DNA from: Youngiibacter fragilis 232.1
GTDB lineage: Bacteria > Bacillota > Clostridia > Clostridiales > Clostridiaceae
Length of the DNA stretch: 24,000 nt
Reading direction: 5' to 3'
Assembly (NCBI RefSeq): GCF_000495435.3
Contig: NZ_AXUN02000113.1
Location: 2,828-26,827 of the forward strand
The notes under the pieces: model-generated
What the model saw: only the letters and a program-made list of their open reading frames with translations
What the model was told of the DNA's origin: nothing
Databases searched by the model: none
Part shown: positions 3,156-24,000 of the stretch, piece after piece
How the letters are laid out: each line of letters starts with the position of its first letter
Position numbering within the stretch: position 1 is the stretch's first letter
Position numbers and translations under genes: made by a program

Positions 3156-3899
3156 ATGGGAGAAAGAATAGGACAGGAAGATAGAGGAAAGACGCCGGTT
3201 TTTGTAGCAGTCTACGACCGGTTATATGAAATGGTGACTAATGGAACCTATCCTGCTGGGAAAGCACTCCCGCCGGAGCCGAAGCTTGCTGCCCTGCTTG
3301 ACGTAAGCCGTGAAACACTCCGTAAAGCCATGAGGCTCCTTGAAGAGGACGGACTTCTGGAGAAAGTGAAGGGTAAAGGGAATTTTGTTGTGGACCTTAA
3401 CAAACCAGGGGTTTCAAGTCTGGAAAAGCTCGGGAACCCCGTCCGCAAATGCATACAGGTGCCAATTGACGAGGATGTTGAAGTGGAAGTGCGCCTGCAG
3501 TCATCAAGCGATTACGAGCAAAAGCTTTTCAATCGTGAGACGAAGACTGCACTTGCGATTGACAGGTGGTATAGGAGCAACGGAAAGATAGTCGCCTATT
3601 CGCTGACACTTGCACCGATAGAATCAGTTCTGACTCTTGGACTTGACCTTTCAAACAAGTCCGAGGTGCTTGATTTCCTGGAGAACACGGCTTACGAGAT
3701 TGCTAGCCGTGCCCATATCAAGGTGAAGACAACCTGGGTAGGAAAGTTCATAAGCGACCGTTATGTACTTAGCGAGGATGAAGAACTGAGCCTCATACAG
3801 GAGAACCTCTATACTGAAGATGAATTTACACTTCTGATCCACAACAAGCACTACATATTGCCTGAAGTCTGTTCGATCGAGATCAATGCGACGCATTGA
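3156..3899 (+). CDS. GntR-family transcriptional regulator (HutC-like, C-terminal UTRA-type effector domain)
   Basis: N-terminal winged HTH (LPPEPKLAALLDVSRETLRKAMRLLEEDGLLEKVKGKGNFV). 247 aa. AAGGAGA RBS. Paralogous in position and sequence to 17658-18461. Confidence 0.85.
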   Translation: MGERIGQEDRGKTPVFVAVYDRLYEMVTNGTYPAGKALPPEPKLAALLDVSRETLRKAMRLLEEDGLLEKVKGKGNFVVDLNKPGVSSLEKLGNPVRKCIQVPIDEDVEVEVRLQSSSDYEQKLFNRETKTALAIDRWYRSNGKIVAYSLTLAPIESVLTLGLDLSNKSEVLDFLENTAYEIASRAHIKVKTTWVGKFISDRYVLSEDEELSLIQENLYTEDEFTLLIHNKHYILPEVCSIEINATH

Positions 3900-3946
3900 C
3901 CAAAGCGATGATCTGAACATTCTGGCGGAATTGGAGAGAGGTAAGG

Positions 3947-5299
3947 ATGGATAATACACTACTGATAAAAAATATAAGGCATCTCGTGACCTGCGATGAC
4001 AAGGATCGCATCCTTGAGGATACCAACCTTTTTGTAAGGGATGGAGTCATCGTATCTATAGGGGACTCACAGCCTGAGGCATCCAGAGTCATAGACGGCT
4101 CGGACCTTGCGGTATATCCGGGACTAGTGAACACGCATCACCACCTGTACCAGATACTGACGAGAAATCTGCCTCAGGTACAGAACCTTGAACTGTTCGA
4201 CTGGCTGACAAAGCTCTACCAGATATGGAAGAACCTGACAACTGACGCCATCTATGACAGCTCAATGGCAGGCATGGGTGAACTTGCGAAATTCGGATGC
4301 AGCACTGTGTTCGACCACCATTATGTTTTCCCGAAGGAAAGCAATGATTTCCTGTCAGCTCAGTTTGAAGCGGCAGGAAAACTCGGAGTCAGGATGGCAG
4401 TATCCAGAGGAAGCATGGACCTGAGCGAAAAGGATGGCGGCCTTCCACCTGATTCGGTTGTTCAGACTATCGATGAAATACTCAGAAGTTCAGAGAGAGC
4501 CGTAAACCAGTTCCATGACCCGAAGGAATACTCAATGAAACAGATTGTGCTTGCACCATGCTCACCCTTCAGCGTAACAGGAGACCTCATGAAGGAGTCA
4601 GCGAAGCTTGCAAGGGACCTTAAGGTAAGGCTCCATACCCATCTGGCGGAGACAATGGATGAAGAGGTCTATCTGAAGGAGAAGCTTGGCATAAGGCCGC
4701 TTGAATATATGGAGAGACTTGGCTGGATCGGTTCCGATGTGTGGTTTGCTCATGGCATCCACTTCAATACCGATGAACTGAAGCATCTTGCTGAGACAGG
4801 TACCGGAGTAGCTCATTGTCCCGCATCAAACATGAAGCTTTCATCAGGAGTAGCAAGGATACCTGAGATGCTGGCATTAGGGGTTCCGGTAGGCCTGGCA
4901 GTAGATGGCAGTGCCAGCAATGATGGTTCAAGCCTCATGGAGGAAATGAGGATAGCATACCTTCTTCACAGGCTAACCTCAGGAGACAAGGCTCCAAGCG
5001 GATACGAAATACTGAAGATAGCTACCAAAGGAAGTGCCAGGTTACTTGGACGACCTGAGCTGGGACATCTTGCCCCAGGTATGGCAGCTGATTTCTTTGC
5101 AGTAAAGGAAAGCCGGCTTGAATTTGCAGGAGCTGCCTTTGATGTCAGTAGCATGCTGTCAACAGTCGGAATCAAGGCTCCTGTGGACTATACGGTAGTT
5201 GCAGGAAAAGTCATAGTCGACAAAGGGATACTTGTGGGTGTGGATGAAGAGGCCCTTACAAGGCGGATCGCTAAGCACTCAAAAGGGATGATGCAGTAG
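3947..5299 (+). CDS. Amidohydrolase-superfamily aminohydrolase, 8-oxoguanine deaminase / chlorohydrolase-like (COG0402 group)
   Basis: Metal-binding NTHHHLYQ near the N-terminus. RGSMDLSEKDGGLPPDSVVQ, HTHLAET, HGIH and the DGSASND aspartate are in the canonical order for this deaminase subgroup. 450 aa. Confidence 0.8.
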   Translation: MDNTLLIKNIRHLVTCDDKDRILEDTNLFVRDGVIVSIGDSQPEASRVIDGSDLAVYPGLVNTHHHLYQILTRNLPQVQNLELFDWLTKLYQIWKNLTTDAIYDSSMAGMGELAKFGCSTVFDHHYVFPKESNDFLSAQFEAAGKLGVRMAVSRGSMDLSEKDGGLPPDSVVQTIDEILRSSERAVNQFHDPKEYSMKQIVLAPCSPFSVTGDLMKESAKLARDLKVRLHTHLAETMDEEVYLKEKLGIRPLEYMERLGWIGSDVWFAHGIHFNTDELKHLAETGTGVAHCPASNMKLSSGVARIPEMLALGVPVGLAVDGSASNDGSSLMEEMRIAYLLHRLTSGDKAPSGYEILKIATKGSARLLGRPELGHLAPGMAADFFAVKESRLEFAGAAFDVSSMLSTVGIKAPVDYTVVAGKVIVDKGILVGVDEEALTRRIAKHSKGMMQ

Positions 5300-5330
5300 A
5301 AACATGCATATGAATACAAAGACTGAACAG

Positions 5331-5354
5331 GAAGCGTGGTCTTGGCCACGCTTC
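5331..5354 (+). other. 9-bp perfect RNA hairpin between the amidohydrolase and the first hydrolase gene (possible weak terminator or mRNA stabiliser)
   Basis: GAAGCGTGG-tcttgg-CCACGCTTC followed by ttcttct. It lies inside the 5' extension of the ORF-track model 5336-6400, which argues for the 5378 start. Confidence 0.4.
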
Positions 5355-5377
5355 TTCTATCAGAGCTGGAGGAAACG

Positions 5378-6400
5378 ATGTACGAAAGAAATAGAAAAAA
5401 AGTGATCCTTGATGTAGATACGGGTTCGGATGATGCTATAGCCATAATGGTGGCACTGAAGTCAGAAAAGCTGAAGGTCGAAGGGATCTGCACAGTCTGG
5501 GGTAACCTTGGAGTAGAGCAGACCACGTTCAATACGCTTGCGGTATGCGAAGTACTGAACATGGATGTGCCTGTCTATGCCGGGTGTCCGCATAGCATGG
5601 TGAAGGACCTGACACCTGGACGTGTTCCTGAAAGTGACATAAAACCTATAATAATAGATGGCAGGGAGCTTAGCCTTCATAGTGAGAGGTTAAGCGGATT
5701 GCCTGATACAAATAAGACCAGGGAAGCACTCCACGCGGTTGAGTTCTATCATAAGTACCTGAAGGAAACCACCGAACCTGTGACAATAGTCGCGGTAGGT
5801 CCCCTCACAAATCTTGGATTCCTGTTCAGGATGGCTCCTGAGCTTGCTGATAAGGTAGATGAACTGATAATAATGGGTGGAGGGGTTGAAGTGTCCAATG
5901 TCAGCGAAGGCGGTGAAGCCAATGTCTGGCATGATCCCGAGGCTCTCCAGATCATCCTTGAAGCCGGACTGAATCCGCTTCTTGTGACCCTTGATGCAAC
6001 ATTCTCCGTTCCGCTTACAGACTCGGATTGCGATGTGCTTGAATCGCTGAATACCTTCGAAGGAAGGTTCGCAGCCAGCGTGGTTCGCCAGAGGATAGAA
6101 TATGAGTCCGTGAAGCATGCGACAAGGGGAGCCTGGTCTCCTATCCACGATGCCCTCGCAGCATGCGCTTGCATCGACAGATCCGTCCTTACAGAGGTAT
6201 TGACTGAGAACTGCAGGGTGGAGTGCACCGGCATATGTGACGGTGAACTGCTCCTTGACAGGAGGGCAAAGCCTGCGTCTGCCAATGCAACGATTGCTGT
6301 AAAAGCTGACAAGGATAAGTTTTTTGGGATGCTTTGCAGCCTGTTTTCAGGTAATGGAAGGGAATCCCTGAAATCTCACGAGGAGGAAATCACGGCTTAG
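5378..6400 (+). CDS. Nucleoside hydrolase (IU-NH family, ribonucleoside N-ribohydrolase)
   Basis: N-terminal DVDTGSDDAIAI (DxDxxxDD Ca-binding fingerprint). Also GNL...NTL, GPLTN, a conserved NVWHDPEA and a later HD. I prefer the ATG at 5378 (GGAGGA 6 nt upstream) over the GTG at 5336. Confidence 0.85.
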   Translation: MYERNRKKVILDVDTGSDDAIAIMVALKSEKLKVEGICTVWGNLGVEQTTFNTLAVCEVLNMDVPVYAGCPHSMVKDLTPGRVPESDIKPIIIDGRELSLHSERLSGLPDTNKTREALHAVEFYHKYLKETTEPVTIVAVGPLTNLGFLFRMAPELADKVDELIIMGGGVEVSNVSEGGEANVWHDPEALQIILEAGLNPLLVTLDATFSVPLTDSDCDVLESLNTFEGRFAASVVRQRIEYESVKHATRGAWSPIHDALAACACIDRSVLTEVLTENCRVECTGICDGELLLDRRAKPASANATIAVKADKDKFFGMLCSLFSGNGRESLKSHEEEITA

Positions 6401-6417
6401 TCCATGAATCAATACAT

Positions 6418-7392
6418 ATGAAAAAGAAAGTGATCCTAGACGTTGATACAGGTTCGGATGATGCGATCGCCATCATGCTTGCAATGCTATCACCGGAAAT
6501 CGAGGTCCAGGCCATATGCACCTGCAGCGGCAATGTGGACATAGGACATACCACTGACAACACTTTAAGGCTTCTCTCGAGAATGGGAAGGAACATTCCG
6601 GTATATCGGGGGCTCCCTGAACCTCTGGTCAAAAAGCTCCATAATGAGAGAAGTGTTACGAAGAAGCTTGAGGCTGTCATAGACGGTAAGGTTGCCAGGA
6701 TGCATGACGACCAGCTGAATCTCCCTGATTCAATATACAGGGAGCAGGAGATACCTGCTGTCTTCTATTACAAGGAAGCGCTGACAAATGCGGAGGACCC
6801 GCTTAATATAATAACAACCGGACCGTTGTCGAATCTCGCCACAGTGCTTTCACTCTGGCCGGATCTCGCAGGCAGGATAGGCAGCCTGACCATTATGGGC
6901 GGAGGACACAAGATATACAACAATAACTATGCCGAAGGAAACTTCTGGCATGACCCGGAAGCGGCCCAGATAGTTCTGAATTCAGGTATAGTGCCAACAC
7001 TGGTGCCGCTTGATGCAACCCACCAGGCAATAATAACAAGTGATGAAATCGAAGTGCTGAGGAGCCAGGGCAATTTCTGCAGCGAATTTGCGGCAGGACT
7101 TCTGAAACAGCGCATGAAGCTCCATACGGCAAACCAGCCGCTGCATCTTCCTGATTCAGCAACCATGCATGATGTTGTAGCTGTTGCAGCCTTCCTTGAT
7201 CCAGAGGTGTTGATGGATGTCAGGGATGTACGCTGCGCTATTGGATTTACAGGCTCTGCCGAAGGACACTGTGCCATAGACAGGAGGGAATCCAGGGAAA
7301 AGCCAAATTGCCGTTTCGCAATGTCAGCTGACAGGGAAAGGTTCGTGAAGAGATTCCTTGAAACCTTCGCCAAAGCAAAGGACATACAGTAG
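6418..7392 (+). CDS. Nucleoside hydrolase (IU-NH family), tandem paralog of the preceding gene
   Basis: Has the same KKVILDVDTGSDDAIAIM N-terminus, plus GNV...NTL, GPLSN, NFWHDPEA and MHD. 324 aa. Confidence 0.85.
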   Translation: MKKKVILDVDTGSDDAIAIMLAMLSPEIEVQAICTCSGNVDIGHTTDNTLRLLSRMGRNIPVYRGLPEPLVKKLHNERSVTKKLEAVIDGKVARMHDDQLNLPDSIYREQEIPAVFYYKEALTNAEDPLNIITTGPLSNLATVLSLWPDLAGRIGSLTIMGGGHKIYNNNYAEGNFWHDPEAAQIVLNSGIVPTLVPLDATHQAIITSDEIEVLRSQGNFCSEFAAGLLKQRMKLHTANQPLHLPDSATMHDVVAVAAFLDPEVLMDVRDVRCAIGFTGSAEGHCAIDRRESREKPNCRFAMSADRERFVKRFLETFAKAKDIQ

Positions 7393-17657: not shown

Positions 17658-18461
17658 GTGTTTGAATTGGCACAGGTCACTTCAGTAACGGAAAAAGAAA
17701 GGAAGCTTCCTTTGTTCGTGGCTGCATACGAGACTATGTACAACAGGATAAAGGATGGGACGTATAAGCCCGGGGATAAGCTGCCAAGCGAAAGTGAGTT
17801 GTCTGTCGAGCTTGCGATAAGCAGAGGCACTCTAAGACAGGCTATGCTTCTACTTCAGGAGGACGGCCTTATAATGAACTATAAGGGTAAGGGAAGCTTT
17901 GTACTTGAAACAAACAAGGAACTGAGCACAGGGATAGAGAAGATCGTAAATCCCCTGATAACATGCAGCATCCAGCCCATTGACAAGGTAGTTACCGAGA
18001 TGCACTTCCAGCCGGCTACAGAACCTCATAAGAAGTTGTTTGACCTTCCTCAGTCATCGCTTGTATCCCGGGCTGAGTTCTCATACTTCATAAAGGACAA
18101 GGTAGTTGGATTCGCGCTGGTATTCATGCCTTATGACCTTCTGGTTGAGAACGGGGTGGCAATAGACGACAATGACGAGATTCACAGGTTCTACAACAGC
18201 TTTCTCACAACTGAAAGACTCAGCTGTGAAAGTGTACTGAGGATGGGATTTGCCCGGAAGTTGACAGCTGATAAGATGCATATTAAGGAAAAGGAACCGA
18301 TCCTCATAATGGAGGAGACATTCTATATGGGAAACCGGCCTTCAATGCAGCAGAAGATATTCTTCCTACCCGCGTACTATGAGTTGAAGATTCTAAGGTC
18401 AAATGACAGATATACCTCTAAGCAGGGTACACAGGGTCCGTTGTCATCTGATAAGCTCTAG
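17658..18461 (+). CDS. GntR-family transcriptional regulator (HutC-like)
   Basis: wHTH KLPSESELSVELAISRGTLRQAMLLLQEDGLIMNYKGKGSFV. Same position in the module as 3156-3899. The GTG start is uncertain by a few codons. Confidence 0.8.
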   Translation: MFELAQVTSVTEKERKLPLFVAAYETMYNRIKDGTYKPGDKLPSESELSVELAISRGTLRQAMLLLQEDGLIMNYKGKGSFVLETNKELSTGIEKIVNPLITCSIQPIDKVVTEMHFQPATEPHKKLFDLPQSSLVSRAEFSYFIKDKVVGFALVFMPYDLLVENGVAIDDNDEIHRFYNSFLTTERLSCESVLRMGFARKLTADKMHIKEKEPILIMEETFYMGNRPSMQQKIFFLPAYYELKILRSNDRYTSKQGTQGPLSSDKL

Positions 18462-18504
18462 AATCACACAAGTCAATATTCAGTTTGAAGAAATAATGGA
18501 TTGA

Positions 18505-18804
18505 AGGAGCAATATCTATCCAGGTAAGGAACAGGAAATGCTGATTGCAAGGACTATCGGGAGTTCAAGGTTCGTATACAACCATATCCTGGAACTTTGG
18601 AACAAGGAACATGAGGATACCTTCCACTGTATAAACTGCTCACCTCAACATAAGAACCTTAACCAGAAAACCTGGCTGAACCATGAAGTCTGCATACTAA
18701 GCAATGCAGCGAAGCACAGCATGAAGGTCGACGTGTTCATAGGTCCCGTGTTCTGTTCAGATACATTGAACGATGTATATTTACTGCATATTTATTGCAT
18801 TTAA
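18505..18804 (+). pseudogene. N-terminal remnant of an IS200/IS605-family TnpB (OrfB) gene
   Basis: The in-frame translation from 18505 reads RSNIYPGKEQEMLIARTIGSSRFVYNHILELWNK...KTWLNHEV. This matches the characteristic TnpB N-terminus (YRIYPxxEQxxLIxxxFGxxRFVYN...WLKEV). It lacks the first residues and everything beyond about 90 aa. Confidence 0.6.
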
Positions 18805-18807
18805 TGG

Positions 18808-18837
18808 TTGACAAGCCACATCTACGTGGAATACAAT
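18808..18837 (+). promoter_or_regulatory. Sigma-A promoter of the T-box controlled operon
   Basis: TTGACA (18808-18813), an 18-bp spacer, then TACAAT (18832-18837), directly upstream of the T-box leader. Confidence 0.65.
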
Positions 18838-18861
18838 TAGCGAAAGAATTGAATCAATAGA

Positions 18862-19107
18862 AACCTTTGAGGCAGAGGAAAATCAGAATGCACCTTTTAG
18901 AGAGCGGGAGATGGTGGAAATCTCGCAGGAAGCACTGAACAATATGGACTGCTGAGGTTGGCGTCAAATGCGCCGACGCAAGACTGCGTTATTGGTCGGG
19001 GATATGTATGTATCCTTTTGAGATGGTTCATATGAACCTAAGCAAGGTGGCACCGCGCAAAGTATTCGCCCTTGGTCTGTTTTAGGCAGACCAGGGGCGT
19101 TTTGTTA
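18862..19107 (+). promoter_or_regulatory. T-box riboswitch leader, specifier read as UGG (tRNA-Trp)
   Basis: K-turn at the Stem I base: CC-UUU-GA-GGCAG (18864-18875) pairs with CUGCU-GA-GG (18949-18957). AG bay AGAGAG (18899-18904) and distal loop GGUGGAA (18913-18919). The specifier loop ends ..AAUA-UGG-A, with UGG at 18945-18947. T-box sequence AAGGUGGCACCGCG, with a 7-nt UGGCACC bulge (19048-19054) in an antiterminator that competes with the terminator. Confidence 0.85.
19067..19107 (+). terminator. Intrinsic terminator of the T-box leader
   Basis: 13-bp stem CGCCCTTGGTCTG / CAGACCAGGGGCG (19067-19079 / 19087-19099) with a 7-nt loop, followed by TTTTGTTATT. Its 5' arm is shared with the antiterminator helices. 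Confidence 0.85.
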
Positions 19108-19126
19108 TTCAGGGGGGATGCAGGGT

Positions 19127-20065
19127 ATGAAGTCAGGTGGAAAAATTGTAATTCTGGGAGCGGGTCATGTCGGGTCACATTGTGGTATGGCATTGGCCTG
19201 GCGAGGTATCTGTCAGGAAGTAGTCCTAGTGGACAAGAATGAGAAAAAGGCGGCTGCACAGGCAATGGACATATCTGATGCATTAACCTTTCCGCCAAGC
19301 GCAGCAGTTGTACGGCAGGGTTCATACTCTGATTGTGCTGATGCAGATATAGTGGTAATAGCAATAGGGGAGCCAAGGCTTCCGGGTCAGACAAGACTGG
19401 ATCTTCTTGAAAGCTCTGCAAGGATGCTCAGGGAGCTGACAGAAACCCTTAAGCCTATAGGAATAGGGGGAGTGGTGGTAACCATAACGAATCCTGCAGA
19501 CATCGCCGCATACTATGTGCGTCGTGAACTTGATCTCCCCAGGGAGAGGGTATTCGGTACCGGAACACTGCTTGATACAGCGAGGCTTGTAAAGACCATA
19601 TCAGAGAAGAGTGGAGTCTTCAGGGGAGCCATCAGCGCTTTCTCAATGGGAGAGCATGGCGACTCATCAATGATCCCGTTTTCCCAGGTCAGGATAGGAG
19701 CACTTCCCCTTGACAGTTATCCCGGGCTTGATAAGGAGTATATTCTGGAACGAACCAGGATGACAGGTATGGACATCATAAACGGTAAGGACTCAACAGA
19801 GTTCGGAATCGGACAGGCACTTACAGCACTCTGTGCTTCCATACTGGGTGATGAAAGGCAGGTATTCCCGCTTTCGGTTCTGCTTGAGGGAGAATACGGA
19901 CAAAGGGATGTCAATTGCGGTGTCCCATGTGTTGTTGGACGAAACGGCATCGAATCGATTGTTGAGCTGCCGCTGACCTCTGAGGAGCAGGCTCAGCTTG
20001 ATGCTTCCTGCGATATAATAAGAAGACATATTGAAAAGGCCTGCAACCAGCATAAGGTCATATAA
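19127..20065 (+). CDS. L-lactate/malate dehydrogenase family 2-hydroxyacid dehydrogenase (specificity uncertain; Arg at the LDH Gln102 position)
   Basis: Rossmann KIVILGAGHVGS and VLVD. Active-site loop IGEPRLPGQTRLDLL, plus GTGTLLDTARL and GEHGDS (catalytic His). I prefer the ATG at 19127 (the G-rich RBS at 19112-19117 is 9 nt upstream) over 19118, which abuts the RBS. Confidence 0.8.
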   Translation: MKSGGKIVILGAGHVGSHCGMALAWRGICQEVVLVDKNEKKAAAQAMDISDALTFPPSAAVVRQGSYSDCADADIVVIAIGEPRLPGQTRLDLLESSARMLRELTETLKPIGIGGVVVTITNPADIAAYYVRRELDLPRERVFGTGTLLDTARLVKTISEKSGVFRGAISAFSMGEHGDSSMIPFSQVRIGALPLDSYPGLDKEYILERTRMTGMDIINGKDSTEFGIGQALTALCASILGDERQVFPLSVLLEGEYGQRDVNCGVPCVVGRNGIESIVELPLTSEEQAQLDASCDIIRRHIEKACNQHKVI

Positions 20066-20087
20066 CTGATTTGAAGGAGTGAAGAAA

Positions 20088-21116
20088 ATGAGATTAAATG
20101 GAAAGATTATCAGCTTAACCTTAATGACAGCAATGGTGACCATGCTTTTTGCCGGGTGCGCCGGTAAGAGTTCAACTGAAACCACCGCACCTTCCGCCAA
20201 GACACCCGAAAAGATTCGTGTCGCTATAGTGCAGCCACTTAGCCATACGTCGCTTGACCAGATCAGGGAGACCATAGTCTCTGAGCTGGAAGCCTCAGAT
20301 GTAGAGTTTGAAATCACAACACTGAACGCCAACGGAGACACATCCTCCCTGTCCACGATCCTCACCAACGAGAAGTCCAGGGGAGTTGATATTGTGGTTC
20401 CTATAGCCACTTCAACAGCCCAGAGCGCAAAGGTGGTATTTGACGGTTTAAAGACACCAATAGTATTCGCAGCAGTGTCTGATCCGGTTGCTGCAGGTCT
20501 TACAGGCGATGACAGCAAGAACATAACCGGCGTATCAAACAGCATACCGGCTGCAGAAATAGTTAAGCTTATTTCAAACTTCCAGCCGGACTTCAAGAAA
20601 ATCGGATTCCTGTATACCTCGAGCGAAGCTAACTCTGTGTCTACCATCAACAAAGCTAAGGAATACTGCGATGCAAACGGAATTTCATATGAGGAATCTT
20701 CAATAGCAACACTCAGCGACCTTCAGAGTGCAGTGAACAGTCTCCTTTCAAAGGGAGTGGATGTGCTTTATACAGGCAATGACAACAGTATAGCATCTGC
20801 TATGACAACCTACACTGACGCAGCCTACAGCAAGGGCGTACCAGTATACTGCGGTGCGGATTCAATGGTGGCTGACGGAGGCTTTGCGACGATCGGGGTA
20901 AACTACGTCCAGCTTGGACAGCAGGTTGCAGACATTGTGGTAAGGATCGCTGAAGGTGCAGAGCCTTCTGAGATACCATACGAGACTTTGAGTGAGTACG
21001 CAAAGTTCATCAACATGCAGGCTGCTGACAGATTAAGCTTCGAGCTTACAGATAAGATGCTTGAAGGCTTCAGGGTTTTGGTTGAGCAGGACGGAACCAG
21101 CCACTTCGGAAAGTGA
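20088..21116 (+). CDS. ABC transporter substrate-binding lipoprotein (ABC_sub_bind / COG2984, TrpX-like)
   Basis: Signal peptide with lipobox FAGC (Cys codon 20157-20159). An AGGAG lies 8 nt upstream of the ATG at 20088; the ORF-track GTG at 20079 overlaps the RBS. Family features: IVQPLSHTSLD, PIATSTAQ and FAAVSDPV. Confidence 0.8.
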   Translation: MRLNGKIISLTLMTAMVTMLFAGCAGKSSTETTAPSAKTPEKIRVAIVQPLSHTSLDQIRETIVSELEASDVEFEITTLNANGDTSSLSTILTNEKSRGVDIVVPIATSTAQSAKVVFDGLKTPIVFAAVSDPVAAGLTGDDSKNITGVSNSIPAAEIVKLISNFQPDFKKIGFLYTSSEANSVSTINKAKEYCDANGISYEESSIATLSDLQSAVNSLLSKGVDVLYTGNDNSIASAMTTYTDAAYSKGVPVYCGADSMVADGGFATIGVNYVQLGQQVADIVVRIAEGAEPSEIPYETLSEYAKFINMQAADRLSFELTDKMLEGFRVLVEQDGTSHFGK

Positions 21117-21123
21117 GTGAGGG

Positions 21124-22071
21124 ATGATGTACGCTGACATGCTCATTTCTGCCCTTGGCCAGGGGATAATATATGCCCCTATGGCATTGGGGATTTTCAT
21201 AGCCTTCAGGATCCTCAACACACCGGACCTGACAACAGACGGAAGCTTTGTATTCGGTATGGCGGTCTGCGCCATGGTGACAATTGCGGGACATCCGATC
21301 ATAGGAATCCTTGCAGGAATTGCTGCCGGTATGGGAGCAGGGCTCGTAACCGGATTCCTTCAGACAACATTCAAGATAAATCCAATACTTTCTGGAATAC
21401 TGACCATGACAGGTCTGTATACGGTAAATTATGCTGTTCTTGGAGGTCAGTCCAACAGGTACCTCCAGAGCATGGTAATCAACAAGAGCGGTGTGGAAGC
21501 ACCGGTATCCAGCAGGACAATCTACAAGATGGTTTCATTTTCAGAGAATGGGGCAGTATCGGAACTTATCCTGTCTGTGATCATCGTTGTCATACTGGTC
21601 GTCATACTGGCTGTATTCTTCAAGACCAGGCCAGGACTTGCCCTTCGGGCGACAGGCGACAATGAGGAGATGGTAAGGACCTCCTCCATCAATGCGAACC
21701 TCACGAGGAGAATGGGGATAATGCTGGCCAACGGACTTGTAGCTTTGTCAGGAGCCATGCTCTGCCAGCAGCAGAGATATGCTGACCTTGGCAACGGCAA
21801 TGGAATGCTAGTTGTCGGTTTGGCATCTGTAATCATCGGCCAGGCTATATTCGGGAAGCGTGGTGTGACGCTAAGCGTGATTTCAGCGGTCGTTGGTTCC
21901 GTGCTCTATAGGATAATACTGCAGGCTGCATACCAGATAGACATGCCAAGCTACACTGTAAAGCTGATTTCAGCGCTTATAGTTGCGATATCCCTTACAT
22001 TGCCTTTGGTCAAGGAAAAGATTGATGCCGGTAAGATGAGGAGATCAGGAGAAGGGAGGGTGAACAGATGA
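21124..22071 (+). CDS. ABC transporter permease (COG4120, TrpY-like)
   Basis: 315-aa polytopic membrane protein containing LRATGDNEEMVR, typical of this HAAT-like permease family. Its stop overlaps the ATPase start. Confidence 0.85.
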   Translation: MMYADMLISALGQGIIYAPMALGIFIAFRILNTPDLTTDGSFVFGMAVCAMVTIAGHPIIGILAGIAAGMGAGLVTGFLQTTFKINPILSGILTMTGLYTVNYAVLGGQSNRYLQSMVINKSGVEAPVSSRTIYKMVSFSENGAVSELILSVIIVVILVVILAVFFKTRPGLALRATGDNEEMVRTSSINANLTRRMGIMLANGLVALSGAMLCQQQRYADLGNGNGMLVVGLASVIIGQAIFGKRGVTLSVISAVVGSVLYRIILQAAYQIDMPSYTVKLISALIVAISLTLPLVKEKIDAGKMRRSGEGRVNR

Positions 22072-22889
22072 GCAGGCAGGAGAATACTGAAAGAAGCCAG
22101 CTTTCCATCATCCACCTGTCCAAGACATTCAATGCGGGAACTCCCAATAGGATGGTTGCCCTCGATGACTTTTCACTTGAAGTGCCAAAGGGTGAATTCA
22201 TAACCATTCTTGGATCAAATGGAGCAGGCAAATCAACCCTTTTCAATGCGATCCTGGGGAAATTCCTGCCTGACAGCGGCAGGATAATTCTTGACGGTGA
22301 TGATATAACATTCAAGAAGGACTACAAGCGTGCTGCAAACATCGGATGCCTTTATCAGAATCCATTGCGGGGAACCGCACCCAACATGACGATTGAAGAG
22401 AATCTTGCGCTCGCGTATACGAGGTATGCCTCGCGTTCATTCTTCGCCATACATAAAAAAGACTCGGAATACTTCCGTAAGCTTCTTGCTACTCTCGACC
22501 TTGGACTAGAGGACAGGATGAGGACCAAGATGGGACTGTTATCCGGAGGGCAGCGCCAGGCAGCGTCGCTGCTTATGGCAACTATAGCCAAGCCAAAGCT
22601 TCTGCTCCTTGATGAGCATACTGCAGCCCTTGATCCCGCAACCTCAAAAAAGGTTCTGGAGATCACAAACCGAATAATCATGGAAGACGGGCTGACAGCC
22701 ATGATGATCACCCACGACATGAATCAGGCCCTGTGTTTCGGTACACGTACCATAATGATGGATGCAGGCCGGATTGTCCTGGACATTACCGGGGAAGAAA
22801 GGAGCAGAATGACTCCAAGATCCTTATCTGAACTCTTCTCAAACAAATCCGGGCACCTTCTGTCTGACAGGAGCATGCTTTCGATTTAA
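22068..22889 (+). CDS. ABC transporter ATP-binding protein (COG1101, TrpZ-like)
   Basis: Walker A GSNGAGKST, signature LSGGQRQA, Walker B LLLLDEHTAALD and H-loop ITHD. ATGA overlap with the permease stop. Confidence 0.9.
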   Translation: MSRQENTERSQLSIIHLSKTFNAGTPNRMVALDDFSLEVPKGEFITILGSNGAGKSTLFNAILGKFLPDSGRIILDGDDITFKKDYKRAANIGCLYQNPLRGTAPNMTIEENLALAYTRYASRSFFAIHKKDSEYFRKLLATLDLGLEDRMRTKMGLLSGGQRQAASLLMATIAKPKLLLLDEHTAALDPATSKKVLEITNRIIMEDGLTAMMITHDMNQALCFGTRTIMMDAGRIVLDITGEERSRMTPRSLSELFSNKSGHLLSDRSMLSI

Positions 22890-22938
22890 GTGCCTTATTG
22901 TTTCGCATGGATGGGTTTCCTGCTTGACACATAATATT

Positions 22939-22987
22939 TTATCCAGGCTATGCTGATTAGTTAAATCAGCATAGCCTGGATAATTTC
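22939..22987. terminator. 20-bp perfect hairpin, bidirectional terminator between convergent operons
   Basis: TTATCCAGGCTATGCTGATT (22939-22958), loop agtta, AATCAGCATAGCCTGGATAA (22964-22983), then TTTCGTT. Every position pairs by hand. Confidence 0.8.
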
Positions 22988-23069: not shown

Positions 23070-24000
23070 CTAGATCGCACCGACAATCCTATGAGGTATG
23101 TAAGGCTCTTCAAGGTAAGCTATATCATCAGCGGTCAGCTTGACGTTCAAGGCTCCTGCCGCATCATCGAAATACTTTGCCTTGGTTGCTCCTATTATTG
23201 GGGCAGTAACACCTTTTGCGAGGTGCCAGGCAAGTGATACCTGGGTCATGGTTGCTCCATGCCTTTCAGCAAGCTCATGGACACGCTGTACTATGGCATA
23301 ATCCGTTTCCTGGGTGCTGTCATACTTGGAGACTGCTGTCTTGTCGGTCTGGCTGCGCTTCGTCTCCGCGTTCCATTCAAGGCGTGAGAGCCTGCCGGCA
23401 GCAAGAGGGCTGTAGGGAGTAAGGGCAACGTTCATCTGACGGCAGATTGGGATCATCTCCCTCTCATCCTCACGGTAAAGCAGATTGTAGTGGTTCTGCA
23501 TTGAAGAGAAGGGTGTCCATCCGTTCTTGTCTGCCGCGACCTGCATGTTGTGGAACTGATATCCATACATTGCCGATGCTCCAAGGGCCCTTACCTTGCC
23601 TGCCTTTACAATGCTGTCCAGGGCTTCCATGGTCTCCTCTATGGGAGTTCCATAATCGAACCTGTGTATGATGTAGAGGTCGAGATAATCGGTGCCAAGC
23701 CTTTTTAGGGAAAGGTCGATTTCCCGCTGGATCGCCTGCCTTGACAGCTTGCCTTCATTGAAGTAGACCTTTGTGGCAAGGACAACCTTGTCACGGGCTA
23801 CATTGTTTTTTATCGCACGTCCCAAATACTCCTCGCTGGTGCCTCCAGAATAGGTGTTGGCGGTGTCAAAGAAATTGATCCCTAAATCGAGCGCACGTTT
23901 TACGAGCTCCTCGCTGTCCTCAGCATTAAGGGTCCATGCGTGGAAGTTGGAGCCTGGGTCACCGAAGCTCATGCATCCTACACAAAGGCGAGAAACCATC
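23070..24000 (-). CDS. Aldo/keto reductase (partial; the N-terminus lies beyond the window end)
   Basis: GCMSFG..., DTANTYSGGTSEEYLGRAI, VVLATKV, DLYIIHRFD and a C-terminal IIGATK...L are AKR hallmarks. The reading frame is still open at base 24000, and about 10-15 residues usual in the family are missing. Confidence 0.85.
   Translation of the reverse strand, partial: MVSRLCVGCMSFGDPGSNFHAWTLNAEDSEELVKRALDLGINFFDTANTYSGGTSEEYLGRAIKNNVARDKVVLATKVYFNEGKLSRQAIQREIDLSLKRLGTDYLDLYIIHRFDYGTPIEETMEALDSIVKAGKVRALGASAMYGYQFHNMQVAADKNGWTPFSSMQNHYNLLYREDEREMIPICRQMNVALTPYSPLAAGRLSRLEWNAETKRSQTDKTAVSKYDSTQETDYAIVQRVHELAERHGATMTQVSLAWHLAKGVTAPIIGATKAKYFDDAAGALNVKLTADDIAYLEEPYIPHRIVGAI

Follow-up and report, generated by a model that had tools for sequence, protein, structure and literature searches.

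A tryptophan T-box operon of Youngiibacter fragilis that joins an L-lactate dehydrogenase-family gene to a TrpX-like importer: a candidate route for tryptophan salvage from indolelactate

Structure of the Operon

The DNA analyzed here is a window of 24,000 nucleotides (nt) from Youngiibacter fragilis 232.1 (contig NZ_AXUN02000113.1), and all coordinates given are positions in this window unless another contig or locus is named. At 18808-22983 it holds a single transcription unit that comprises a promoter, a T-box leader with its terminator, four genes and an end hairpin. The first gene (19127-20065, + strand) encodes a dehydrogenase of 312 amino acids (aa) that belongs to the L-lactate dehydrogenase (LDH) family (PF00056 and PF02866) and is predicted to act as an L-indolelactate/indolepyruvate dehydrogenase. 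The three remaining genes, all on the + strand, encode a TrpXYZ-like ATP-binding cassette (ABC) importer: a TrpX-like lipoprotein substrate-binding protein (20079-21116; PF04392, 210 bits), whose predicted ligand is an indole 2-hydroxy (or 2-oxo) acid and not tryptophan (Trp), a BPD_transp_2 permease (21124-22071; PF02653, 95 bits), which is kept 3' of the binding protein in related loci, and an ATPase (22068-22889; PF00005, 109 bits). At the end of the operon, hairpin prediction gives a bidirectional, intrinsic-terminator-like structure with a 20-bp stem (22939-22983). The unit is bounded by a GntR gene and a TnpB relic (17658-18804) on one side and by a convergent aldo/keto reductase gene (23070-23999) on the other.

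A sigma-70-type promoter (18808-18837, + strand; TTGACA - 18 nt - TACAAT, 11 of 12 matches) is the sole strong promoter-like site on the + strand 5' of the operon, and an equivalent TTGACA/TATAAT pair precedes the leader in most of the related loci. The four genes are tightly packed, being separated by 13 nt and 7 nt, while the ATPase start overlaps the permease stop by 4 nt. Only about 17 nt lie between the T-run of the terminator and the start codon of the dehydrogenase, and no promoter-like site was found on the + strand between 18837 and 21406. Consequently, the dehydrogenase is the first gene read past the switch. A first-pass annotation of this DNA had described it as the first gene of an operon induced by Trp starvation and co-transcribed with a transporter. 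Both statements are borne out, the former by the tight spacing, the lack of an internal promoter-like site on the + strand and the Trp-specific T-box described below, the latter by the importer genes directly 3' in one operon. For the dehydrogenase an alternative ATG exists at 19118; the Shine-Dalgarno sequence GGGGGGA (19111-19117) favors the start at 19127.

The TnpB relic upstream is an open reading frame (ORF) of 88 aa (18538-18804, + strand) that matches the N-terminal helix-turn-helix of IS605 OrfB (TnpB) together with a fragment of the DNA/RNA non-specific endonuclease family. It has the appearance of a remnant and ends 4 nt before the -35 element of the operon promoter.

The Trp-Specific T-Box Leader

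The leader (18858-19110, + strand) consists of a Stem I, a specifier UGG (18945-18947), the T-box sequence GGUGGCACCGCG (19046-19057) with its UGGC bulge (19048-19051), and a terminator (19067-19099) with a U-run. The Rfam model RF00230 matches 18858-19076 in full length (model positions 1-219) with 87.7 bits (E 1.7e-19). This is below the gathering score of 93, and an Rfam search at the gathering threshold missed the leader. In total, 23 T-box matches were obtained in the genome, eight of them, including the present leader, below the gathering threshold. The specifier region reads GAACAAUA-UGG-A-CUGCU-GAGG, which is the codon followed by an A, a closing helix of 5 nt and GAGG. All other T-boxes of this genome with an obvious expected codon follow the same order of codon, purine, 5-nt helix and GAG, as exemplified by valS (GUA), ileS (AUC), pheS (UUC), leuS (CUC) and a methionine-synthesis gene (AUG). 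The UGGC bulge of the antiterminator matches the G73-CCA end of the genome's tRNA-Trp(CCA), whereas all three tRNA-Met genes have A73. Thus, both the geometry and the discriminator base led us to reject the overlapping AUG (Met) as specifier. The terminator forms a 15-bp stem (-27.1 kcal/mol) followed by UUUUGUUAUU, and its 5' arm is at the same time the 3' half of the antiterminator, which makes the two structures mutually exclusive. We conclude that the leader is a genuine Trp-specific T-box despite its sub-threshold score.

Four T-boxes of the genome carry a UGG specifier. They are located before a complete trpEGDCFBA set, before the gene of a TrpP transporter, before a TrpB-like gene and before the present operon. 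The TrpB-like gene probably serves indole salvage. Since Trp synthesis, Trp uptake and probably indole salvage are thus already under the control of UGG T-boxes, the present operon represents the fourth member of this regulon.

The T-box survey of the genome gave one further observation outside the window: at G000:C59:74780-75032 (- strand), a T-box with a UAC (Tyr) specifier precedes a gene of the tryptophanase/tyrosine phenol-lyase family (NF009709, 525.6 bits; the tyrosine phenol-lyase equivalog stays below its cut-off). Because this gene is under an amino acid starvation switch, the arrangement suggests that the beta-eliminating lyase runs in the synthetic direction and forms Tyr from phenol, pyruvate and ammonia.

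Family and Active Site of the Dehydrogenase

The dehydrogenase matches Ldh_1_N (PF00056) with 118.5 bits (cut-off 27, E 3e-34) and Ldh_1_C (PF02866) with 90.2 bits (cut-off 22.6, E 2e-25). On the NCBIfam L-LDH model TIGR01771 it scores 304.1 bits, just above the cut-off of 303.55, while canonical clostridial LDHs reach 345-425 bits on the same model. It is for this barely reached cut-off that annotation pipelines call the protein L-lactate dehydrogenase, and public records label its homologs in the same way. The models for malate dehydrogenase (MDH) are far below their cut-offs (TIGR01763, 194.7 vs. 351.85 bits; PRK06223, 246.8 vs. 283 bits). The AlphaFold2 model of the protein has a predicted local distance difference test value (pLDDT) of 92.3, and its best Foldseek matches are L-LDHs with template modeling (TM) scores of about 0.9. 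No other gene of the LDH/MDH family is present in the genome (assembly 100% complete). The counterpart in Youngiibacter multivorans DSM 6139, which has the operon as well, is about 93% identical, and about 120 database proteins at 60-93% identity have the loop IGEPR[LQK]PGQTRLDL in common.

Residues were placed by HMMER alignments to the solved LDHs 4LMR, 3WSV and 1LDB and by a multiple alignment. The catalytic set of LDHs is kept, as the first reading of the sequence had claimed: R90, D150, R153, H177 and T224 correspond to Arg109, Asp168, Arg171, His195 and Thr246. The GxGxxG loop (G11-A-G-H-V-G16) and the NAD-selecting Asp (D36) are present as well; both are, like the catalytic residues H177, D150, R153 and R90, invariant in the clade to which the protein belongs. 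The motifs GQTRLDL and GEHGDS are found, the MDH motifs GMSRDDL and GGHGD are absent.

The substrate pocket of canonical LDHs is not kept. R84 (AGG, 19376-19378) occupies the Gln102 position of the LDHs from Bacillus, Geobacillus and Enterococcus in a gapless alignment (IGEPRLPGQTRLDL vs. AGANQKPGETRLDL), which confirms the earlier assignment of this codon. Position 214 is a Gly, and T224 is followed by E225 (codon 19799-19801) and F226. Among 33 canonical LDHs, the Gln102 position is Q in 32, the 214-equivalent is A in all, the 225-equivalent is Y in 30 and the 226-equivalent is Y in 31. Across positions 214, 224, 225 and 226, the residues are Ala/Thr/Tyr/Tyr in canonical LDHs, Gly/Ala/Tyr/Tyr in MDHs and Gly/Thr/Asn/Phe at the equivalent sites of the aromatic LDH of Bifidobacterium longum.

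The enzyme of B. longum (type 4 LDH, Aldh; Laursen et al., 2021) prefers indolepyruvate (kcat/K0.5 194 s-1 mM-1) and barely uses pyruvate (PMC8556157). For our comparison, its sequence was obtained from gut metagenome contigs in which it was located via a published cloning primer. It is similar to the present protein in belonging to the L-LDH family, in lacking an Arg173/His188-type site for fructose 1,6-bisphosphate and in sharing the same pocket departures: the Ala236 equivalent is G, and of the two Tyr that follow Thr246 the first is exchanged for another residue and the second for Phe. In contrast, both proteins are only 38% identical, while orthology was assigned with cut-offs of 60-70% in the paper on the bifidobacterial enzyme (PMC8556157). 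Its substrate loop (GRKPPANSNR) has no Arg at position 102. The bifidobacterial enzyme is paired in the genome with an aminotransferase instead of an importer, runs from Trp to indolelactate and is not controlled by Trp starvation.

Phylogeny and Position 102

A maximum-likelihood tree was calculated from 43 members of the dehydrogenase clade, 33 canonical LDHs (30 from sampled Clostridia, 3 from the PDB), 8 LDH-like MDHs and the B. longum aromatic LDH. All trees are quick-search trees, and the only support values are those of the Shimodaira-Hasegawa-like approximate likelihood ratio test (SH-aLRT). The dehydrogenase clade is monophyletic (SH-aLRT 100), has a stem of about 1.0-1.2 substitutions per site and falls outside both the canonical LDHs and the LDH-like MDHs, the canonical LDH side being supported with 97-98. 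A sister relation to the bifidobacterial aromatic LDH appeared in the tree (SH-aLRT 86-90) and is not maintained here, since an alternative placement is equally good in the approximately unbiased (AU) test (p 0.53). Thus, from the comparison with LDHs, LDH-like MDHs and the bifidobacterial enzyme that had been proposed at the outset, a distinct clade emerges, while a specific kinship with the bifidobacterial enzyme is not supported. Three loci labeled Bifidobacteriaceae (L075, L078 and L083) were considered as candidates for this enzyme and turned out not to encode it.

Of 200 sequences of the clade, 181 have R at the Gln102 position and the remainder have H (7), W (7), P (3), Y (1) or C (1), while G214, T224, E225, F226, Q88 and R90 are invariant (200/200). 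Four loci with a residue other than Arg are among the loci set described below, and all of them keep the importer (L045 with H, L049 with P, L057 with Y and L101 with W); L049 and L057 have a UGG T-box as well. In contrast, Arg102 is invariant in the LDH-like MDHs (8/8) and in another Arg102 clade of LDHs (20/20), and in the tree Arg102 has arisen separately at least three times. Going by the alignment, Arg102 is not the defining residue of the present clade. The first-pass annotation had laid weight on this Arg as the switch that turns an LDH into an MDH; this is not borne out, as 19 of 200 members have H, W, Y, P or C instead and such variants keep the cassette. A carboxylate-binding Arg would not be expected to tolerate Trp or Pro, while R, H, W and Y would be the set expected if the side chain were in stacking contact with an aromatic ring. 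Likewise, the invariant Glu in the pocket (E225) would argue against a dicarboxylate substrate. Compared with the LDH-like MDHs, the present protein shares Arg102 and the Arg109/Asp168/Arg171/His195 set, but branches with the LDHs, lacks the MDH motifs and belongs to a clade in which the Arg is replaceable (H, W, Y, P). The case also indicates that Arg at LDH position 102 is an unreliable predictor of malate specificity.

When 150 sampled Clostridia were scored with the L-LDH model, the scores had a second mode, which is formed by the other Arg102 clade. It was considered as part of the present clade and rejected, being a different clade without T-box or importer nearby. It comprises the loci L262-L281, 19 of which have the motif G[IV]ARKPGQ[TS]RL[ED]L (L272 gave no motif match). 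Like the present protein, its members have Arg102 and Gly at the Ala236 equivalent and score above the L-LDH equivalog cut-off. Unlike it, they are nested within the canonical clostridial LDHs, have Phe or Tyr and then Tyr after Thr246, keep Trp185 and are only 31-36% identical to the present protein. Members of this clade are probably annotated as LDHs, and their Arg102 makes a malate/oxaloacetate activity possible.

Conservation of the Cassette

We scanned one genome per GTDB species and obtained 80 loci, which were picked on the dehydrogenase alone (54-93% identity). Three of these loci end within about 320 nt after the dehydrogenase, and the importer was therefore counted over the other 77. 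In 70 of them, binding protein, permease and ATPase follow directly 3' of the dehydrogenase. The hosts are Oscillospiraceae, Lachnospiraceae (including Anaerobutyricum hallii), Anaerovoracaceae, Christensenellales, many metagenome-assembled genomes from rumen and gut, and Spirochaetes/Treponemataceae. A T-box is located 5' of the dehydrogenase in 64 of the 80 loci, and wherever the specifier is readable it is UGG (62/62), with the geometry TGG-N-5nt-GAGG. Thus, the question raised earlier, whether homologs in other genomes also follow Trp T-boxes, can be answered in the affirmative. The UGG leaders are of three architectures (AUA-UGG, GAA-UGG and AA[AG]-UGG). No conserved flanking gene, and in particular no aminotransferase, was found around the 80 loci beyond the four-gene unit, with ORF calling being crude in high-GC contigs.

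Random sampling at class level added little to the number of cassettes. The L-LDH model was run on 150 genomes, where, apart from the match of the window itself, four low-scoring or partial matches were left out; a search of 400 genomes with the binding protein gave a single genome, G378, with a similar protein (43-45% identity), which lies beside a member of the dehydrogenase clade. Per species, the cassette is thus rare, even though no fewer than 80 species carry it. The linkage to the importer is found in about 70 species.

The eight spirochaete loci are without a T-box, as is expected in this phylum. Most of them share the motif TAGAAACA next to the promoter. In L030, L031, L032, L045, L067, L081 and L101, a (T)AGAAACA motif is positioned about 20-60 nt 5' of the dehydrogenase start and just 3' of a TTGAC...TATAGT-like promoter. 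This motif may be a protein operator that takes the place of the riboswitch.

Some loci deviate from the order of the cassette. In Clostridium vitabionis (L060:767-2346), a homolog with 59% identity overlaps by 4 nt a gene of 199 aa that starts with a chorismate-mutase domain at its N-terminus (50.9 bits on TIGR01805, which is under the cut-off), and this locus has neither importer nor T-box. In L075, L078 and L083 (1-6950), a homolog with 55-56% identity is divergent to a cluster that contains trpE, trpG and trpB. L083 continues with a distantly related ABC system of the PF04392 type (28% identity), the binding protein of which retains the Asp discussed below. These exceptions still point to aromatic metabolism.

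The Binding Protein and Its Asp-to-Asn Change

The NCBIfam model NF041285 (TrpX) gives the best NCBIfam match of the binding protein, yet with 246.5 bits it stays below the cut-off of 390. The solved relatives 3LFT, 3LKV and 6HNI match with 135, 126 and 121 bits and each hold an aromatic amino acid, namely Trp, Phe and Tyr, respectively. In TrpX of Streptococcus suis, the ligand residues are T108, A127, T129, D152, N233 and Q273 (PMC9382623). This set maps to T111, A132, S134, N154 (codon 20538-20540), N236 and Y276 of the present protein, so that Asp and Gln are replaced; A260 and D261 are further ligand positions. The roles of the binding residues were taken from the text of two papers, not from structures.

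The operon as a whole resembles the streptococcal trpXYZ system (S. suis TrpX; S. pneumoniae SP1069, 3LFT), which has a UGG T-box with terminator and antiterminator and, in the same order, a PF04392 lipoprotein, a BPD_transp_2 permease and an ABC ATPase. Both systems also agree in T, A, T/S and N among the ligand positions. They differ in that the dehydrogenase gene is here inserted between leader and binding-protein gene, that D152 is replaced by Asn and that the indole-contacting Gln (Q273/Q284) is replaced by Tyr. Furthermore, the three solved binding proteins have Thr or Ser where an invariant Asp261 is found here.

At the position of D152, Asn is present in all 66 dehydrogenase-linked binding proteins, while 3LFT, 3LKV, 6HNI and a second PF04392 protein from the genome of Y. 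fragilis itself have Asp. Among 400 sampled Clostridia, we found four sister binding proteins (L284, L285, L286 and L290; 35-40% identity) directly 3' of UGG T-boxes. They share A260, D261, D266 and Y276 with the present protein but keep Asp154 and Thr134; no dehydrogenase adjoins them, and their genomes are without any member of the dehydrogenase clade. As far as the alignment can tell, they are a natural comparison that isolates the Asp-to-Asn change. The protein of G378, which is encoded convergently to a clade member, is a further one of the Asn type, and the Asn thus tracks the presence of the dehydrogenase (67/67 with it vs. 0/4 without it).

As the Asp is the only acidic residue of the published ligand set, we infer that it is the partner of the alpha-ammonium group of the ligand. 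The change that goes with the dehydrogenase would then be the loss of the charge that holds the alpha-amino group, as would be expected if the ligand were a 2-hydroxy (or 2-oxo) analog of Trp. One might object that a Tyr at position 276 excludes side chains of the size of Trp. However, A260, D261 and Y276 are kept in the Trp-regulated sisters, so that a pocket with Tyr276 and Asp261 should be compatible with indole and this objection is removed.

The four sisters have Ala-Asp...Tyr where streptococcal TrpX has Ala-Thr...Gln. This suggests that the clostridial PF04392 proteins under Trp T-boxes may use a second way of recognizing the indole ring within the family. In G378 (L316, G378:C1:572000-586000, 3173-6836), the dehydrogenase is convergent to the Asn-type importer operon, the frame of the binding protein contains one in-frame TAG, and no T-box motif was found at this locus.

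Discussion

The operon is best read as a device for obtaining Trp from its 2-hydroxy analog: L-indolelactate would be imported, oxidized to indolepyruvate in an NAD-dependent reaction and transaminated to Trp. We consider the chances of this reading to be about evenly balanced. In detail, uncharged tRNA-Trp would stabilize the antiterminator of the T-box, leading to read-through into the four genes. The ABC importer with its Asn-type binding protein would then take up an indole-bearing 2-hydroxy acid, most likely L-indole-3-lactate, with which neighboring bacteria commonly end their fermentation, and the dehydrogenase, NAD-dependent according to its Asp36 and with a rebuilt substrate pocket, would oxidize it to indolepyruvate. 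Housekeeping aromatic or aspartate aminotransferases might finally turn indolepyruvate into Trp. The proposed substrate is available: bifidobacteria and lactobacilli release indolelactate, and other gut bacteria use it up (PMC8556157, PMC10949743). Salvage of indolelactate via the co-transcribed transporter had already been put forward in the first-pass annotation. The idea gains from the conservation of the cassette in Clostridia and Spirochaetes and from the Asn-type binding protein, while the identity of the substrate is still deduced from sequence features.

Several points weigh against this interpretation. No aminotransferase is encoded in or near the cassette. The oxidation of 2-hydroxy acids with NAD is thermodynamically unfavorable, and although uptake at the expense of ATP, together with the use of Trp for tRNA charging and protein, might pull a small flux uphill, this pull is an argument and not a result. 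The role of the Asp in binding the alpha-amino group is inferred, and the TrpX homolog of S. pyogenes has Asn at the D152 position, too. The precedent of Gln102Arg, which converts LDH to MDH, predicts oxaloacetate activity for the 90% of clade members that have Arg. Finally, the placement as sister of the bifidobacterial aromatic LDH is not supported, and the pocket residues shared with that enzyme may consequently reflect convergence or chance.

Among the other explanations, the one that survives best concerns the compounds and not the principle: the system might handle several aromatic 2-hydroxy acids (phenyllactate, 4-hydroxyphenyllactate and indolelactate) or another 2-hydroxy or 2-oxo acid related to Trp. 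The bifidobacterial aromatic LDH accepts all three aromatic pyruvates (PMC8556157), the binding protein has the Ala and Tyr that form the "default" combination of a Phe binder according to the two-residue rule of Bradshaw et al. (PMC6816091), and the homolog in C. vitabionis is translationally coupled to the gene with the chorismate-mutase domain. However, all 62 readable leaders are specific for Trp and none for Phe or Tyr, which indicates selection through Trp supply, and the combination of Ala, Asp261 and Tyr is also found in the dehydrogenase-less sisters under Trp T-boxes and should hence be compatible with indole. We regard a broader or different substrate as unlikely.

Slightly less probable in our view is that the importer takes up Trp itself and the dehydrogenase is an accessory, serving redox balance or acting on an aromatic 2-oxo acid that arises intracellularly when Trp is short. 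TrpX is the best NCBIfam match of this PF04392 protein, and the import of Trp by a T-box-controlled TrpXYZ, with Trp as the T-box specificity, is well established (PMC9382623). The residues A260, D261 and Y276, which likely hold the indole, are shared with Trp-regulated sisters that have no dehydrogenase, and the Asn of the S. pyogenes homolog fits Trp import as well. Yet the TrpX equivalog cut-off is missed by far (246.5 vs. 390), and the genome already possesses a TrpP under Trp T-box control. In addition, Trp import leaves unexplained why the enzyme is kept before the importer in 70 of 77 loci from two phyla and why the Asp-to-Asn change tracks it (67/67 vs. 0/4). No rival accounts for this Asp/Asn split as well as the import of a 2-hydroxy analog does.

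It appears improbable that the enzyme is an oxaloacetate/malate dehydrogenase, which would remove oxaloacetate and thereby pull the aspartate-dependent transamination of imported indolepyruvate to Trp. Such a role would be in line with Arg at the Gln102 position here and in 181 of 200 clade members, with T210, G214 and S223, which are common to the clade and the LDH-like MDHs, and with the lack of any other MDH or LDH in the genome; moreover, a 2-oxo acid, too, would fit a binding protein of the Asn type. In contrast, 19 of 200 members from a clade that keeps the cassette have H, W, Y, P or C at this position, while neither the MDHs nor the other Arg102 clade show any exception from Arg. The invariant E225, which replaces Tyr beside the Thr246 equivalent, would disfavor a second carboxylate, the score on TIGR01763 (194.7 vs. 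351.85 bits) and the absent MDH motifs do not fit, and free indolepyruvate is chemically unstable in the environment.

Least of all do we expect an ordinary fermentative L-lactate dehydrogenase that ended up behind a T-box by chance, as the just-reached TIGR01771 cut-off (304.1 vs. 303.55), the naming of homologs in public records, the L-LDH fold and its status as the only LDH-family gene of the genome are outweighed by the replacement of Gln102, of the Ala236 equivalent (G214) and of the Tyr-Tyr pair after Thr246, by the position outside the canonical LDH clade on a long stem, by the importer linkage across about 70 species and by the fact that a central enzyme of fermentation is not expected under Trp starvation only.

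Some elements of the proposed indolelactate salvage are established, namely the control of TrpXYZ by a Trp T-box (PMC9382623) and, in bifidobacteria, aromatic LDHs that belong to the L-LDH family (PMC8556157). In the literature we searched, which included comparative T-box papers, we found neither an LDH-family gene in a Trp T-box regulon nor indolelactate as a source of Trp. This study adds the Asp-to-Asn signature, for which the sisters without a dehydrogenase serve as controls, the finding that position 102 is variable, the further, unrelated Arg102 clade and the negative AU test on the bifidobacterial kinship.

Taken together, the operon might represent an undescribed and widespread Trp-salvage pathway of Clostridia and Spirochaetes, in which L-indolelactate is taken up by the first PF04392 member specific for hydroxy acids, oxidized by a dedicated indolelactate dehydrogenase of the LDH family and converted by a transaminase, so that indolelactate would be a traded currency of Trp in gut, rumen and digester communities. 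To this wider proposal we assign a chance a little short of even. Indolelactate is among the best-studied host-active Trp metabolites of gut bacteria, being a ligand of the aryl hydrocarbon receptor; most accounts regard it as an end product or as a precursor of indolepropionate. If the proposal holds true, indolelactate would have a sink through which the costliest amino acid is regained from it, and models of Trp-metabolite pools and of cross-feeding would change. Genes annotated as "L-lactate dehydrogenase" in about 80 or more species would receive a function, current rules mislabeling them because the L-LDH equivalog cut-off is just passed. Furthermore, a signature of one residue, Asp to Asn, would separate the hydroxy-acid-binding from the amino-acid-binding proteins of the PF04392 family.

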